A stretch of 64,000 bases of DNA, taken from NCBI RefSeq assembly GCF_003018255.1, contig NZ_CP027440.1. One strand, 5' to 3'. Shown piece after piece: positions 57,315 to 64,000 of this stretch. The stretch is from Escherichia coli. GTDB taxonomy: Bacteria > Pseudomonadota > Gammaproteobacteria > Enterobacterales > Enterobacteriaceae. A program made the translations under genes and the position numbers. The notes beneath the pieces are model-generated. The model had not been told where the DNA came from, made no database searches, and saw only the letters and a program-made list of their open reading frames with translations. Every line of letters starts with the position of its first letter. Within the stretch, counting starts at the first letter, position 1.

Positions 57315-57999
57315 ACAAGTGATGCCGGTTAAGCTGGCGCAGGCGCTGGCGAATCCGTTATTTCCGGCGCTGGATAGCGCCTTACGTTCAGGCCGTCATA
57401 TTGGCCTCGACGAACTGGATAATCATGCATTCCTGATGGATTTTCAGGAATATCTGGAAGAGTTTTACGCGCGTTATAACGTTGAGCTTATTCGTGCACC
57501 GGAAGGGTTCTTCTATCTACGCCCACGTTCCACCACGCTGATCCCTCGTTCCGTCTTGTCGGAACTGGATATGATGGTCGGGAAAATCCTCTGTTATCTC
57601 TATCTCAGCCCGGAACGGCTGGCGAATGAGGGGATTTTCACCCAGCAGGAACTGTACGACGAACTGCTCACCCTGGCCGATGAAGCGAAACTGCTGAAAC
57701 TGGTGAACAACCGTTCAACCGGTTCAGACGTTGACCGGCAGAAGTTGCAGGAGAAAGTACGTTCTTCGCTCAACCGTCTGCGTCGTTTGGGTATGGTGTG
57801 GTTTATGGGCCACGACAGCAGCAAGTTCCGCATTACCGAATCGGTGTTCCGCTTCGGAGCCGATGTGCGTGCTGGCGACGATCCCCGTGAAGCACAGCGT
57901 CGCCTGATTCGTGATGGCGAAGCAATGCCGATTGAAAATCATCTGCAACTCAACGATGAAACCGAAGAGAGTCAGCCAGATAGCGGAGAGGAAGAATAA
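57295..57999 (+). CDS. mukE: Chromosome partition protein MukE
   Basis: 234 aa from [16 protein letters not shown]; 20-bp overlap with mukF, TAATG overlap with mukB. Confidence 0.9.
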
Positions 58000-60900
58000 T
58001 GATTGAACGCGGTAAATTTCGCTCACTGACGCTGATTAACTGGAACGGCTTTTTTGCCCGAACTTTTGACCTTGACGAGCTGGTCACGACGCTTTCTGGC
58101 GGTAACGGGGCGGGTAAATCCACCACCATGGCAGCGTTCGTTACGGCGCTTATCCCCGACCTGACCCTGCTGCATTTCCGTAACACTACGGAAGCCGGGG
58201 CCACCAGCGGTTCGCGCGATAAAGGTCTGCACGGTAAGCTGAAAGCGGGTGTCTGTTATTCGATGCTCGACACCATTAACTCGCGCCACCAGCGTGTAGT
58301 GGTCGGTGTGCGTCTGCAACAGGTTGCCGGACGCGATCGTAAAGTGGATATCAAACCATTTGCCATTCAGGGCCTGCCGATGTCGGTGCAGCCGACACAA
58401 CTGGTGACCGAAACTCTGAACGAACGCCAGGCGCGCGTGCTGCCGCTTAACGAGCTGAAAGACAAGCTCGAGGCGATGGAAGGCGTGCAGTTTAAACAGT
58501 TCAACTCCATTACCGATTACCACTCGCTGATGTTCGATCTGGGCATCATCGCGCGTCGTCTGCGCTCAGCGTCTGACCGTAGTAAATTCTATCGTCTGAT
58601 CGAAGCCTCGCTGTATGGCGGGATCTCCAGCGCCATTACTCGTTCTCTGCGCGACTACCTGTTGCCGGAAAACAGTGGGGTGCGGAAAGCGTTCCAGGAC
58701 ATGGAAGCGGCGCTGCGTGAAAACCGCATGACGCTGGAAGCGATTCGTGTCACCCAGTCAGACCGTGACCTGTTTAAGCATCTGATCAGCGAAGCCACCA
58801 ACTACGTGGCGGCGGACTACATGCGTCACGCCAACGAGCGCCGTGTTCATCTCGATAAGGCCCTGGAGTTTCGTCGCGAGCTACATACTTCGCGTCAGCA
58901 ACTGGCGGCTGAGCAGTACAAACACGTCGACATGGCGCGAGAGCTGGCTGAGCACAACGGTGCCGAAGGCGATCTGGAAGCGGATTATCAGGCGGCCAGC
59001 GATCACCTGAACCTGGTGCAAACCGCACTGCGTCAGCAGGAGAAGATCGAACGCTACGAAGCGGATCTCGATGAGCTGCAGATCCGTCTGGAAGAGCAAA
59101 ACGAAGTGGTGGCAGAAGCCATCGAACGCCAGGAAGAGAACGAGGCTCGTGCGGAAGCTGCCGAACTGGAAGTGGACGAGCTGAAAAGCCAGCTTGCTGA
59201 CTACCAGCAGGCGCTGGACGTCCAGCAAACGCGCGCGATCCAGTATAACCAGGCGATTGCTGCGCTTAATCGTGCCAAAGAACTGTGCCATCTGCCGGAC
59301 TTAACCGCCGACAGCGCTGCCGAATGGCTGGAAACCTTCCAGGCGAAAGAGCTGGAAGCGACCGAAAAAATGCTCTCTCTTGAGCAGAAAATGAGCATGG
59401 CGCAAACCGCGCACAGCCAGTTTGAGCAGGCTTATCAGCTGGTGGTGGCAATCAACGGCCCGCTGGCGCGTAACGAGGCGTGGGATGTCGCTCGCGAACT
59501 ATTGCGCGAAGGGGTCGATCAGCGTCACCTGGCAGAGCAGGTTCAGCCGTTGCGGATGCGCTTAAGCGAACTGGAACAGCGTCTGCGTGAGCAGCAAGAA
59601 GCTGAGCGTCTGCTGGCAGATTTCTGCAAACGTCAGGGCAAGAATTTTGATATTGATGAACTGGAAGCTCTGCATCAGGAGCTGGAAGCACGCATTGCCT
59701 CTCTTTCCGATAGCGTCTCTAACGCCCGAGAAGAGCGGATGGCACTGCGCCAGGAACAGGAACAGCTGCAGTCTCGCATTCAGAGTTTGATGCAGCGTGC
59801 ACCGGTTTGGCTGGCAGCGCAAAACAGTCTCAACCAGTTGAGCGAACAGTGCGGCGAAGAGTTCACCTCCAGCCAGGACGTCACTGAATATCTGCAACAG
59901 TTGCTGGAGCGTGAGCGCGAAGCCATTGTTGAACGCGATGAAGTAGGCGCGCGCAAAAACGCCGTCGATGAAGAGATCGAACGTTTAAGCCAGCCAGGTG
60001 GTTCTGAAGACCAGCGTTTGAATGCGCTGGCGGAGCGTTTTGGCGGCGTGCTGCTGTCCGAAATTTATGACGACGTGAGTCTGGAAGATGCGCCGTACTT
60101 CTCGGCACTGTATGGCCCGTCACGCCACGCCATCGTGGTGCCAGATCTGTCACAGGTAACCGAACACCTGGAAGGCTTGACCGATTGCCCGGAAGATCTC
60201 TATCTGATCGAAGGGGATCCGCAGTCATTCGATGACAGCGTGTTCAGCGTTGATGAGCTGGAAAAAGCGGTAGTGGTGAAAATCGCCGATCGTCAGTGGC
60301 GTTACTCACGTTTTCCGGAAGTTCCGCTGTTTGGTCGTGCTGCGCGTGAAAGCCGTATTGAAAGCCTCCATGCCGAGCGTGAAGTGCTTTCCGAACGCTT
60401 CGCCACGCTCTCTTTTGATGTACAGAAAACCCAGCGTCTGCATCAGGCGTTCAGCCGCTTTATAGGTAGTCATCTGGCGGTGGCGTTTGAGTCTGATCCG
60501 GAAGCCGAAATCCGTCAACTGAACAGCCGTCGCGTCGAACTGGAGCGGGCGCTGAGTAATCATGAAAATGATAACCAGCAGCAGCGTATTCAATTTGAGC
60601 AGGCGAAAGAGGGCGTTACGGCGCTGAACCGCATTCTGCCGCGTCTCAACCTGTTGGCTGATGACAGCCTGGCGGATCGCGTCGATGAAATCCGCGAACG
60701 TCTGGATGAAGCCCAGGAAGCCGCGCGTTTTGTTCAGCAGTTTGGCAATCAACTGGCGAAACTGGAACCGATCGTTTCGGTATTGCAGAGCGACCCGGAA
60801 CAGTTCGAACAGTTAAAAGAAGATTACGCGTACTCTCAGCAGATGCAGCGCGATGCCCGTCAGCAGGCGTTTGCCCTGACGGAAGTGGTGCAGCGTCGTG

Positions 60901-62459
60901 CGCACTTTAGCTACTCTGACTCGGCAGAAATGCTGAGCGGTAACAGCGATCTCAACGAAAAACTGCGTGAACGTCTGGAACAGGCGGAAGCGGAGCGTAC
61001 CCGCGCGCGTGAAGCGTTGCGCGGACACGCAGCGCAGTTGAGTCAGTACAACCAGGTGCTGGCTTCGCTGAAAAGTTCTTACGACACCAAAAAAGAGCTA
61101 CTCAACGATCTGCAACGTGAATTGCAGGATATCGGCGTGCGTGCTGATAGCGGGGCAGAAGAGCGGGCGCGTATTCGCCGTGACGAGTTGCACGCGCAAC
61201 TGAGCAATAACCGTTCACGCCGCAATCAACTGGAAAAAGCGCTTACCTTCTGCGAAGCGGAGATGGACAACCTGACCCGCAAACTGCGCAAGCTGGAGCG
61301 TGATTACTTTGAGATGCGCGAGCAGGTAGTGACCGCGAAAGCGGGCTGGTGTGCAGTCATGCGCATGGTGAAAGATAACGGCGTTGAACGCCGCTTACAC
61401 CGTCGTGAGCTGGCTTATCTCTCCGCTGATGATTTGCGTTCCATGTCGGATAAGGCGTTAGGTGCGCTGCGTCTGGCGGTGGCGGATAACGAACATCTGC
61501 GCGACGTGCTGCGGATGTCGGAAGATCCAAAACGTCCGGAACGTAAAATTCAGTTCTTCGTGGCGGTTTATCAGCATCTGCGTGAACGTATTCGTCAGGA
61601 TATTATTCGTACCGATGATCCGGTGGAAGCTATCGAACAGATGGAGATCGAACTTAGCCGTCTGACCGAAGAGTTAACCTCCCGTGAACAGAAACTGGCG
61701 ATCAGTTCCCGCAGCGTGGCGAACATTATTCGCAAAACCATTCAGCGCGAACAGAACCGTATCCGTATGCTCAACCAGGGTTTGCAGAACGTATCGTTCG
61801 GTCAGGTAAACAGCGTACGTCTGAATGTGAACGTGCGTGAAACGCACGCCATGCTGCTGGATGTGCTCTCTGAACAGCACGAGCAGCATCAGGATCTGTT
61901 TAACAGCAACCGTCTGACCTTCTCGGAAGCGCTGGCGAAATTGTATCAGCGTCTTAATCCGCAGATTGATATGGGGCAGCGCACGCCGCAGACCATTGGC
62001 GAAGAACTGCTGGATTACCGCAACTATCTGGAAATGGAAGTTGAGGTTAACCGTGGTTCTGATGGCTGGCTGCGCGCAGAATCTGGCGCTCTGTCGACCG
62101 GTGAGGCGATTGGTACCGGTATGTCGATTCTGGTGATGGTGGTACAAAGCTGGGAAGATGAATCTCGCCGCCTGCGCGGTAAAGATATCTCTCCTTGCCG
62201 CCTGCTGTTCCTCGATGAAGCAGCGCGACTGGATGCTCGTTCTATCGCCACGCTGTTTGAATTGTGTGAACGTTTGCAAATGCAGCTCATCATCGCAGCG
62301 CCGGAAAATATCAGTCCGGAAAAAGGCACCACCTATAAACTGGTGCGTAAAGTCTTCCAGAATACCGAACACGTTCACGTCGTCGGCCTGCGAGGATTTG
62401 CGCCGCAACTCCCTGAAACGCTTCCAGGAAGTGACGAAGCGCCTTACCAAGCGAGTTAA
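57999..62459 (+). CDS. mukB: Chromosome partition protein MukB (SMC-like condensin)
   Basis: 1486 aa; N-terminal Walker [10 protein letters not shown], long coiled coils, C-terminal head. Confidence 0.95.
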
Positions 62460-62465
62460 AATGAA

Positions 62466-62490
62466 GGCGGCAGCAATGCCGCCTTTTCTT
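62466..62490 (+). terminator. Rho-independent terminator downstream of mukB
   Basis: ggcggca-gcaa-tgccgcc hairpin + T-rich tract. Confidence 0.7.
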
Positions 62491-63205
62491 GTGCACAGAA
62501 AACCCCCAGCTAGGCTGGGGGTTCCGGAAAGCTTTCAGCTTTGAGCCAGTTATTAAAACCCCTTTTGATTTGTTAAAACACCTTGCGGTCTGGCAACTGC
62601 AAGTGTCAAACAAGAAATCAAAAGGGGGTCCCAATGGGGAACGAAAAGAGCTTAGCGCACACCCGATGGAACTGTAAATATCACATAGTTTTTGCGCCAA
62701 AATACCGAAGACAAGTGTTCTACAGAGAGAAGCGTAGAGCAATAGGCAGTATTTTGAGAAAGCTGTGTGAGTGGAAAAGCGTACGGATTCTTGAAGCTGA
62801 ATGCTGTGCAGATCATATCCATATGCTTGTGGAGATCCCGCCCAAAATGAGTGTATCCGGCTTTATGGGATATCTGAAAGGGAAAAGCAGTCTGATGCTT
62901 TACGAGCAGTTTGGTGATTTGAAATTCAAATACAGGAACAGAGAGTTCTGGTGCAGAGGGTACTACGTCGATACGGTGGGTAAGAACACGGCGAAGATAC
63001 AGGATTACATAAAGCACCAGCTTGAAGAGGATAAAATGGGAGAGCAGTTATCGATTCCCTATCCGGGCAGCCCGTTTACGGGCCGTAAGTAACGAAGTTG
63101 GATGCAAATGTCAGATCGTGTGCGCCTGTTAGGGCGCGGCTGGTAAGAGAGCCTTATAGGCGCATTTGAAAAACCTCCGGCTATGCCGGAGGATATTTAT
63201 TTTCC
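62490..63205 (+). mobile_element. IS200-family (IS200/IS605 superfamily) insertion sequence, ~710 bp; ends approximate (about +/-15 bp)
   Basis: Single Y1 HuH transposase ORF flanked by left-end hairpin cccccag-ctagg-ctggggg and right-end hairpin cctccggctatgccggagg; no tnpB; mukB-ldtD spacer is ~710 bp longer than recalled for K-12. Confidence 0.8.
62634..63092 (+). CDS. tnpA: IS200 Y1-type transposase TnpA
   Basis: 152 aa from MGNEKSLAHTRWNCKYHIVFAPKYRR; HuH-like HIHMLV motif; ORF-track TTG start at 62583 trimmed to ATG 62634. Confidence 0.85.
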   Translation: MGNEKSLAHTRWNCKYHIVFAPKYRRQVFYREKRRAIGSILRKLCEWKSVRILEAECCADHIHMLVEIPPKMSVSGFMGYLKGKSSLMLYEQFGDLKFKYRNREFWCRGYYVDTVGKNTAKIQDYIKHQLEEDKMGEQLSIPYPGSPFTGRK

Positions 63206-63429
63206 GAAAACTCCGTTTCTGCACTAAAAAAGTGGCACATTACGGCGCGCTTTTCTTTAAACTTCTTTACATTAGGTTATGTAAAAACGTATCGGCGTTT
63301 ATATACTGAAGATAAGCCTGATGAGTAACAGGCTTGCTCGTCATACTTTCGTGAGTATTGGCGTTGTACAGGCAAGTCGTAAAATAACAGCCTGGCTATT
63401 CAGAGTATGATAAAAACAGGGGGCAAGGG

Positions 63430-64000
63430 ATGTTGCTTAATATGATGTGTGGTCGTCGGCTGTCGGCAATCAGTTTGTGCCTGGCCGTAACATTCGCTCC
63501 ACTGTTCAATGCGCAGGCCGATGAGCCTGAAGTAATCCCTGGCGACAGCCCGGTGGCTGTCAGTGAACAGGGCGAGGCACTGCCGCAGGCGCAAGCCACG
63601 GCAATAATGGCGGGGATCCAGCCATTGCCTGAAGGTGCGGCTGAAAAAGCCCGCACGCAAATCGAATCTCAATTACCCGCAGGTTATAAGCCGGTTTATC
63701 TTAACCAGCTTCAATTGTTGTATGCCGCACGCGATATGCAACCCATGTGGGAAAACCGTGATGCTGTTAAAGCCTTCCAGCAACAGCTGGCAGAGGTGGC
63801 GATTGCCGGTTTCCAGCCGCAGTTTAATAAATGGGTAGAGTTACTGACCGATCCTGGTGTTAACGGGAGGGCACGCGACGTGGTGCTCTCTGATGCGATG
63901 ATGGGCTATCTCCATTTCATTGCAAATATTCCGGTCAAAGGCACTCGCTGGCTATATAGCAGTAAACCTTATGCGCTTTCAACGCCGCCGCTTTCGGTGA
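63430..64000 (+). CDS. ldtD: L,D-transpeptidase LdtD (YcbB), N-terminal part; 3' end outside window
   Basis: ATG at 63430, open frame to window end: [30 protein letters not shown] (signal peptide). Confidence 0.8.

Follow-up and report, generated by a model that had tools for sequence, protein, structure and literature searches.

Elements of the IS200/IS605 family move as single strands: a circle of ssDNA, formed from the top strand, is released and then joined to single-stranded DNA 3' of the target sequence (PMC6006769, PMC5027513), with a preference for the lagging-strand template at integration (PMC5027513). The family TnpA binds subterminal hairpins, and a guide tetranucleotide located 5' of each hairpin pairs with the cleavage site (PMC6006769). 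In Salmonella enterica, IS200 is a 707 bp element (Lam & Roth 1983; Beuzon & Casadesus; Ellis et al. 2015, PMC4513863). Its left-end hairpin (nt 12-34) is a documented bidirectional terminator, a stem-loop at nt 69-138 sequesters the Shine-Dalgarno sequence, and the antisense RNA art200, 90 nt long with 5' ends at nt 153/154, has a promoter with a strong -35 and an almost unrecognisable -10 (PMC4513863). This IS200 is notoriously dormant and its transposition is rarely detectable (PMC4513863). The Salmonella 5'tnpA RNA regulates invF (PMC5435999, PMC12594629), and such expression and sRNA roles are known only for Salmonella. Both IS608 of H. pylori and ISDra2 of D. radiodurans contain tnpB, and they insert at TTAC or TTGAT whatever the structure there.

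How does an element of the IS200 group choose where to land? Terminator-like sequences were reportedly noticed at IS1541 insertion sites by Odaert et al. in 1998, and we know of no dissection of the mechanism by which a terminator end would become a target. An IS1541 copy between pheL and pheA in Yersinia (PMC3082878) agrees with the rule described below, and terminator-like sequences upstream of IS200/IS605 elements are described in bioRxiv 10.1101/2025.07.22.666184. A literature search on IS200 target specificity gave no results, and PMC9208149 contains nothing specific on targets. The correlation has been partly reported before; the mechanism would be the new part.

A complete IS200C within the mukB terminator

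In the window, the whole 64,000-nucleotide stretch of Escherichia coli DNA analysed here, positions 62491-63201 (+ strand, 711 bp, GTGCACAG...ATATTTATT) are, with little doubt, an intact IS200C (IS200/IS605 family, IS200 group) pasted as a single strand into the mukB terminator and probably near-neutral there. Its DNA is 100% identical to annotated IS200C copies, for example the copy H31 adjoining htpX in strain 104, and RefSeq labels the identical DNA 'IS200/IS605-like element IS200C family transposase' (WP_000526135.1); the name rests on this identity to copies so named by PGAP, used as a surrogate for the ISfinder reference. Chance is excluded by this identity and by the motif of the left-end hairpin, for which 0 matches are expected in shuffles. 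Annotations of the insertion at this site exist in public genomes, and in this sense it is known.

The sequence-only reading of this stretch had recognised a 152-aa Y1 (HuH) IS200 transposase, and the profile matches bear it out. The tnpA gene (62634-63092 on the + strand, from the ATG to the end of the stop codon) encodes a protein that matches Pfam PF01797 Y1_Tnp ('Transposase IS200 like') with E = 3.8e-38 and 130.7 bits against a cutoff of 23, and the NCBIfam equivalog NF033573 transpos_IS200 ('IS200/IS605 family transposase') with 1.9e-43 and 147.7 bits against a cutoff of 55. Its sequence also matches those of PDB entries 2ec2 and 2f5g (Sulfolobus), 2a6m (IS608) and 2xm3 (ISDra2), with E values from 4e-23 to 2e-16. 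The HUH motif H61-I-H63 and the tyrosine Y110 in RGYYV align with the solved TnpA structures, and Y110 is probably the catalytic tyrosine. At the DNA level tnpA is identical to the strain-104 gene encoding WP_000526135.1. It is the sole ORF of the element with a family match; there is no tnpB or iscB, and the other ORFs are short overlapping frames.

Where exactly does the element begin and end? The host genes on both sides are mukB (57999-62459, + strand, 1486 aa, co-oriented with the IS), placed by the ORF list and by the mukB annotation in K-12 and strain 104, and ldtD, whose ATG is at 63430 on the + strand. RNA and DNA folds place the intrinsic terminator of mukB at 62463-62490 (+): its hairpin spans 62463-62486, with the G/C core GGCGGCAGCAATGCCGCC at 62466-62483, and is followed by the retained T-tract TTTTCTT at 62484-62490. 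Past the element, alignment with K-12 identifies 63202-63429 as the remaining host spacer, in which the final 2 T of the mukB T-tract (63202-63203) precede the unchanged upstream region of ldtD. In K-12 MG1655, with mukB ending at 980786 and ldtD starting at 981047, the empty site reads GCCGCC TTTTCTTTTT CCG, i.e. GCCGCC-TTTTC-TTTTT-CCG; the occupied site reads GCCGCC TTTTCTT[IS]TT CCG in the window and GCCGCC-TTTTC-TTT[GTGCAC...ATATTTATT]TT-CCG in E. coli strain 104. The IS200C copy thus splits the T-tract of the mukB terminator, which is the target of the insertion. The insertion is without target-site duplication because the host T's sum exactly: the 5 T of K-12 are the 3 + 2 T around the 711-bp element in strain 104.

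Host T's alone cannot assign these T's to the element or to the host. Two further observations settle their ownership and so fix the ends at 62491-63201. Head-to-tail dimers of IS1541 in Y. pestis read ...GGAGGATATTTATT/GTGCCCAG, with the junction at ...ATATTTATT/GTGC, and the four bases that follow ...TATTTATT are unconstrained in 65 copies (for example TCAT, GTGC, ATAC and CAAG). The interval 62490-63205 given by the sequence-only reading was therefore close without being exact, and its placement between mukB and ldtD stands with one correction: the element is not after the mukB terminator but inside its T-tract. The distance to ldtD, put at about 225 bp, is 228 bp to the ATG. The expected K-12 spacer of about 260 bp is confirmed at 260 bp against 970 bp in the window, and one IS copy explains the excess exactly. 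The comparison with the K-12 junction that had been proposed places the insertion point in the T-tract and finds the K-12 site empty; the ORF matches IS200/IS605 TnpA and the K-12 spacer differs in length.

The orientation of the copy also deserves attention. Over the whole window the + strand, which carries tnpA, has a positive GC skew, and the mukB-ldtD locus is at 0.98 Mb in K-12, which for this one copy puts tnpA and the T-tract on the lagging-strand template. It agrees with transposition by single-strand 'peel and paste', in which the element, as a single-stranded circle of its top strand, would have been inserted 3' of the ...TT in the mukB T-tract, on the lagging-strand template and with no duplication.

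How common is this insertion? Among 5426 complete E. coli genomes, the 1201-nt interval across both junctions, annotated as mukB / IS200C tnpA / ldtD, is present at full length in 97, i.e. about 2%, and the K-12-type empty site in 5327; in one genome, VL40, the mukB-ldtD spacer is instead occupied by debris of the IS4 family. At a coverage of at least 80%, the 91-nt left junction is found in 126 genomes, compared with the 97 that hold the whole interval. An assembly artefact is ruled out since the same junctions recur in these 97 independent complete genomes, whose sources are poultry, pigs and humans. The top 30 carriers listed are 99.9% identical over the 1201-nt query, which fits simple descent from one event. 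Among the matches listed, a single base separates every carrier from the window, TTT in place of TT at the left junction; this host T-run, 1 nt shorter in the window, is also the sole difference from the E. coli IS200C copies, and no complete genome matches the left junction at more than 98.9%. The IS alone gives some match in 3096 of the 5426 genomes, at least 80% of it (counted as a full copy) is present in 2063, and up to 35 places match in one genome. IS200 is indeed carried by many natural E. coli, as the sequence-only reading stated, common and not universal. To our knowledge, K-12 has no IS200 anywhere in its genome; at the mukB-ldtD site, the K-12 sequence is empty.

Structured ends, tnpA leader and neighbouring genes

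The structured ends described in the sequence-only reading are found as hairpins at 62501-62523 and 63174-63192. The element is without terminal inverted repeats; instead, it has subterminal hairpins that are alike at both ends. The left end (62499-62523, +), delimited by folds and by positions 1-23 of the Rfam STnc490 model, consists of an A-run at 62499-62502, a candidate guide, and the hairpin AACCCCCAGC-TAG-GCTGGGGGTT at 62501-62523 (RNA and DNA folds). The right end (63169-63201, +; DNA fold and coordinates) consists of an A-run at 63169-63173, the hairpin CCTCCGGC-TAT-GCCGGAGG at 63174-63192, terminator-like on both strands, and the 9-nt tail ATATTTATT at 63193-63201. Side by side, the left end reads GAAAA-CCCCCAGC-TAG-GCTGGGGG and the right end GAAAAA-CCTCCGGC-TAT-GCCGGAGG, each stem preceded by its A-run. 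The A-run 5' of both stems (AAAA at the left one) is kept in nearly all divergent copies surveyed, with two exceptions (L054 and L062), and the A-run is complementary to the T-rich left-flank target as well as to the right-end terminus TATT. By analogy with IS608, the A-runs 5' of the subterminal hairpins would act as guides pairing with the T-rich cleavage site.

Between the left end and tnpA the leader is heavily folded. The region 62501-62624 (+) matches Rfam RF01405 STnc490, the IS200 left end plus the tnpA 5'UTR, over model positions 1-124 of 124 with 146.4 bits (gathering score 56, E=2e-31). Two other Rfam models, Ysr202 (30.5 bits against 315) and ctRNA_p42d (20 against 50), were hit on terminator-like hairpins below threshold and were rejected. 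Behind the left-end hairpin come a small hairpin at 62528-62542 (+, RNA fold) and a long stem-loop at 62559-62627 (+), present in both MFE and centroid folds with z = -5.9, which is predicted to bury the Shine-Dalgarno sequence at 62622-62628 just upstream of the tnpA ATG. On the + strand the fold thus shows four hairpins in series: the mukB terminator, the IS left end, the small hairpin and the long stem-loop. On the minus strand, a putative art200-type antisense sRNA gene is placed at 62553-62643 by positions carried over from PMC4513863 (minus-strand fold z = -3.7). Its candidate start is at about 62642/62643 by homology, its candidate promoter has a good -35, TTTACA at 62678-62673, and a weak -10, CTAAGC at 62655-62650, and in the fold a stem-loop followed by UUUUAAU marks its candidate end. 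These features sit where PMC4513863 puts art200.

Compared by its published description, Salmonella IS200 has the same left-end terminator hairpin, SD-sequestering stem-loop, 152-aa TnpA and art200 positions as the window element, and differs in length, with 707 bp against 711 bp as delimited here. IS1541 of Y. pestis is 87.5% identical in DNA over its full length of 710 bp, also encodes a 152-aa TnpA and has the same target context; it differs by a much higher copy number and by its head-to-tail dimers. The more distant IS608 and ISDra2 have a similar Y1 HuH TnpA (E = 4e-19 and 2e-16, respectively) and share with the window copy hairpins at both ends, the lack of a duplication, insertion 3' of a short sequence and lagging-strand orientation. 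IS200C differs from them in its lack of tnpB and in its target, a degenerate T-rich tetranucleotide that nearly always has a hairpin in front of it. As far as its sequence can tell, the window element has every family-defining feature that is testable in silico.

What would such an element do to the genes around it, and to its own? If Salmonella is a guide, the left-end hairpin would stop incoming mukFEB transcription, the 5'UTR stem-loop would hide the tnpA ribosome-binding site and art200 would block tnpA translation, making the element self-silencing. The tnpA gene should be nearly silent, as a weak promoter, a sequestered RBS and an antisense RNA would act on it together (PMC4513863). On their path, mukFEB transcripts meet the mukB hairpin with its 7-nt T-rich tail and, 16 bases on, the IS left-end hairpin; outgoing tnpA transcripts meet the right-end hairpin and a T-run. 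In a simple terminator scan, the K-12 mukB hairpin with TTTTCTTTTT passes; the window version, with its tract shortened to TTTTCTT and followed by GTG, fails, and the IS right-end hairpin with its T-run passes in the window. There, the right-end hairpin and the leftover host T's would re-form a terminator. Between the IS and the ldtD ATG (228 bp), every alignment column is the same as in K-12, two promoter-like sites included. Insulation of ldtD from mukFEB read-through by the left-end hairpin, as suggested earlier, is plausible, given that termination by this hairpin is documented for Salmonella IS200 (PMC4513863), and it would be largely redundant because the mukB hairpin and 7 nt of tail are kept, the right end would rebuild a terminator and the 228 bp are unchanged. 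Most likely, the insertion is a near-neutral presence/absence polymorphism with little effect on its neighbours.

Could the locus be read otherwise? A weak match to the NCBIfam model REP_Tyr_transpos (32.2 bits) might suggest a REP-associated tyrosine transposase (RAYT) and not an IS at all, a reading with almost nothing to recommend it: the match is far under the NF047646 cutoff of 80, on which score the assignment was rejected, the IS200 equivalog scores 147.7, and the unit is mobile and multi-copy (up to 35 places per genome) with defined ends. It is also very improbable that this is a dead relic, no longer mobile. The seldom detected transposition of IS200 (PMC4513863) and the host T-run at the left end, 1 nt shorter than in other carriers, would agree with a relic, and the full-length ORF with its HUH motif and tyrosine, the DNA identical to copies at other loci (H31) and the two intact end hairpins speak against it; a TCTT left flank is found at other copies too. 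The copy appears intact by sequence, which is not the same as active. Somewhat less remote, yet still unlikely, is an insulator or regulator that alters ldtD or mukFEB expression and was kept in its lineage for that. One could point to the shortened mukB T-tract that no longer passes the scan, to the documented terminator hairpin that the IS brings (PMC4513863) and to the sharing of the insertion by 97 genomes from poultry, pigs and humans. Yet the mukB hairpin survives with 7 nt of T-rich tail, and the very end of a T-tract is where most IS200 copies are found; the 228 bp before ldtD with both promoter-like sites equal K-12, 98% of the genomes are without the insertion, and the near-identity of the top 30 listed carriers fits single-event descent.

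Terminator ends as the habitual target

Is the T-tract of mukB an isolated case? Eight further E. coli copies each lie directly after a hairpin and a T-run, 4 of them closely following an annotated gene of the same orientation (htpX, yfdV, ycfJ and arcA). The survey was extended by scanning representative genomes with the left-end hairpin motif, which gave loci from Y. pestis, Vibrio, Brenneria, Pluralibacter and Budvicia and from MAGs labelled Bacillota, Peptococcaceae, Desulfovibrio, Acetobacter and Alphaproteobacteria. With duplicates and junctions between two IS copies removed, the set comprised 120 independent left junctions of the IS200 group (E. coli, Yersinia, Vibrio and several MAGs). 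TT precedes the left end in 119 of the 120, and the bases -4 to -1 are TTTT in 62, TATT in 22, TGTT in 13 and TCTT in 8, so that TNTT accounts for 105/120.

An automated terminator test (ViennaRNA) asked for an MFE hairpin of at least 5 pairs and -6 kcal/mol or lower, with A-T and G-T foot pairs trimmed, followed by a tail of 3-12 nt with at least 60% T. It was passed by 102 of the 120 left junctions (85%), compared with 10% of random sites after TT and 19% of sites after TTTT, these controls being drawn from the same IS-rich loci and not from a genome-wide null. In most of the automated negatives (15% of sites missed), a terminator is present and its A-tract pairs into the T-tract; by eye, about 97% of the 120 are terminator-like and about 3 lack a convincing hairpin. 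The spacing is narrow: in 96 of 102 sites the junction falls 5-9 nt past the G/C foot of the hairpin, most often at 6 nt, and at mukB the value is 7 nt for the window and 8 nt for other carriers. Both flanks were available for 59 copies, of which 54 retain a T-run of 0-2 nt to the right of the element, which means that the element docks at the end of the T-tract. A G/C-rich hairpin followed 5-9 nt on by ...TT is the habitual target of IS200-group elements, and the mukB position is not accidental.

Why would a terminator be such a good target? We propose tentatively that IS200-group TnpA picks its targets by structure, with a host terminator on the single-stranded lagging-strand template mimicking the element's own right end. 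The transposase would then accept the host terminator in place of the right-end hairpin plus ATATTTATT, and the head-to-tail dimers suggest that the right end itself is used as a target. It is also conceivable, though rather doubtful as the whole account, that the association comes from selection alone: insertions after TT elsewhere would be harmful and lost, and the hairpin would not be recognised by TnpA. Only the last two bases are invariant, terminators are naturally enriched in T-runs, and insertions into genes are known, such as hisD984 (PMC4513863), all of which speak for selection. Against this, the enrichment stands when the control sites themselves end in TTTT (85% against 19%), and the spacing between hairpin and junction is narrow. 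The many Y. pestis copies surveyed obey the rule as well, in a genome that tolerates IS expansion and gene loss. Moreover, the element's own right end appears to serve as a target in the dimers. Purifying selection probably contributes to the terminator preference too.

For E. coli, the insertion in the window can serve as a lineage marker and should not disturb mukB or ldtD. For the group, a target at the end of a T-tract, co-oriented with the terminated gene, explains the benignness and the persistence of IS200-type elements; it also predicts the sites of new copies and could be used to define ends and targets automatically in annotation. If target choice by structure is true, docking at the T-tract end together with a rebuilt terminator would amount to a 'safe-harbour' strategy, of which the mukB insertion would be one instance.

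Junctions and flanks of the mukB–ldtD insertion

The IS200C copy (62491-63201, plus strand) abuts a host T-run at its left end. This run reads TTTTCTT in the window (62484-62490) and TTTTCTTT in all carriers, the complete E. coli genomes with IS200C at the same site, among the matches listed; the closest left-junction match in any genome reaches 98.9%. The difference comes either from slippage by 1 nt or from an error in sequencing. How often is the insertion found intact? The 91-nt left junction (query 62445-62535) is present, with a coverage of at least 80%, in 126 genomes, whereas the whole 1201-nt interval is found in only 97; in the remaining ~29 the copy at the mukB–ldtD site may be rearranged or interrupted.

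The final mukB codons (62430-62459) carry several clustered differences from K-12 MG1655 (L001, 6758-6787), including AGT and TAC in the window versus ACT and TCT in K-12. The window version is common to the other carriers, and these differences look like lineage haplotype variation adjoining the insertion. In E. coli VL40 (L131), the mukB–ldtD spacer holds IS4-family transposase genes and fragments spanning ~2.9 kb; mobile elements have therefore struck this spacer more than once.

RNA features on both strands

The Rfam STnc490 model matches 62501-62624 on the plus strand, covering the left-end hairpin plus the tnpA 5'UTR. STnc490 was treated as art200, the antisense sRNA of Salmonella IS200, by Ellis et al. 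2015 (PMC4513863). As the match lies on the sense strand of the element, the RNA captured by the Rfam model seems to be sense 5'tnpA and not art200.

On the minus strand, a weak, partial match to the Rfam model Ysr202, Yersinia sRNA 202 (63169-63284), is anchored on the right-end hairpin of the element and scores 30.5 bits, below the threshold of 315. Ysr202 may include an end of IS1541, the IS200-group element of Yersinia pestis. Also on this strand, a terminator-like hairpin followed by a T-run (63235-63250) lies within the ldtD upstream region; it is kept in K-12 (L001, 6853-6868) and is unrelated to the IS.

IS200-type ends beyond E. coli

MAGs labelled Acetobacter, Alphaproteobacteria, Peptococcaceae, Desulfovibrio and Bacillota contain near-identical IS200-type left ends that share the hairpin and the A-run (L012-L014, L020-L028, L038-L041 and L056-L069 among the loci compared), and nearly all of these ends are preceded by terminator-like hairpins. 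Wide horizontal spread could explain these occurrences, as could binning contamination. In Yersinia pestis NCTC5923, IS1541 forms head-to-tail dimers (L071, L072, L074 and L118), in which the left end GTGCCCAG of the second copy immediately follows the right end ...GGAGGATATTTATT, with a copy-to-copy spacing of 710 bp. Because the two ends abut, the element appears to use its own right end as an insertion target.
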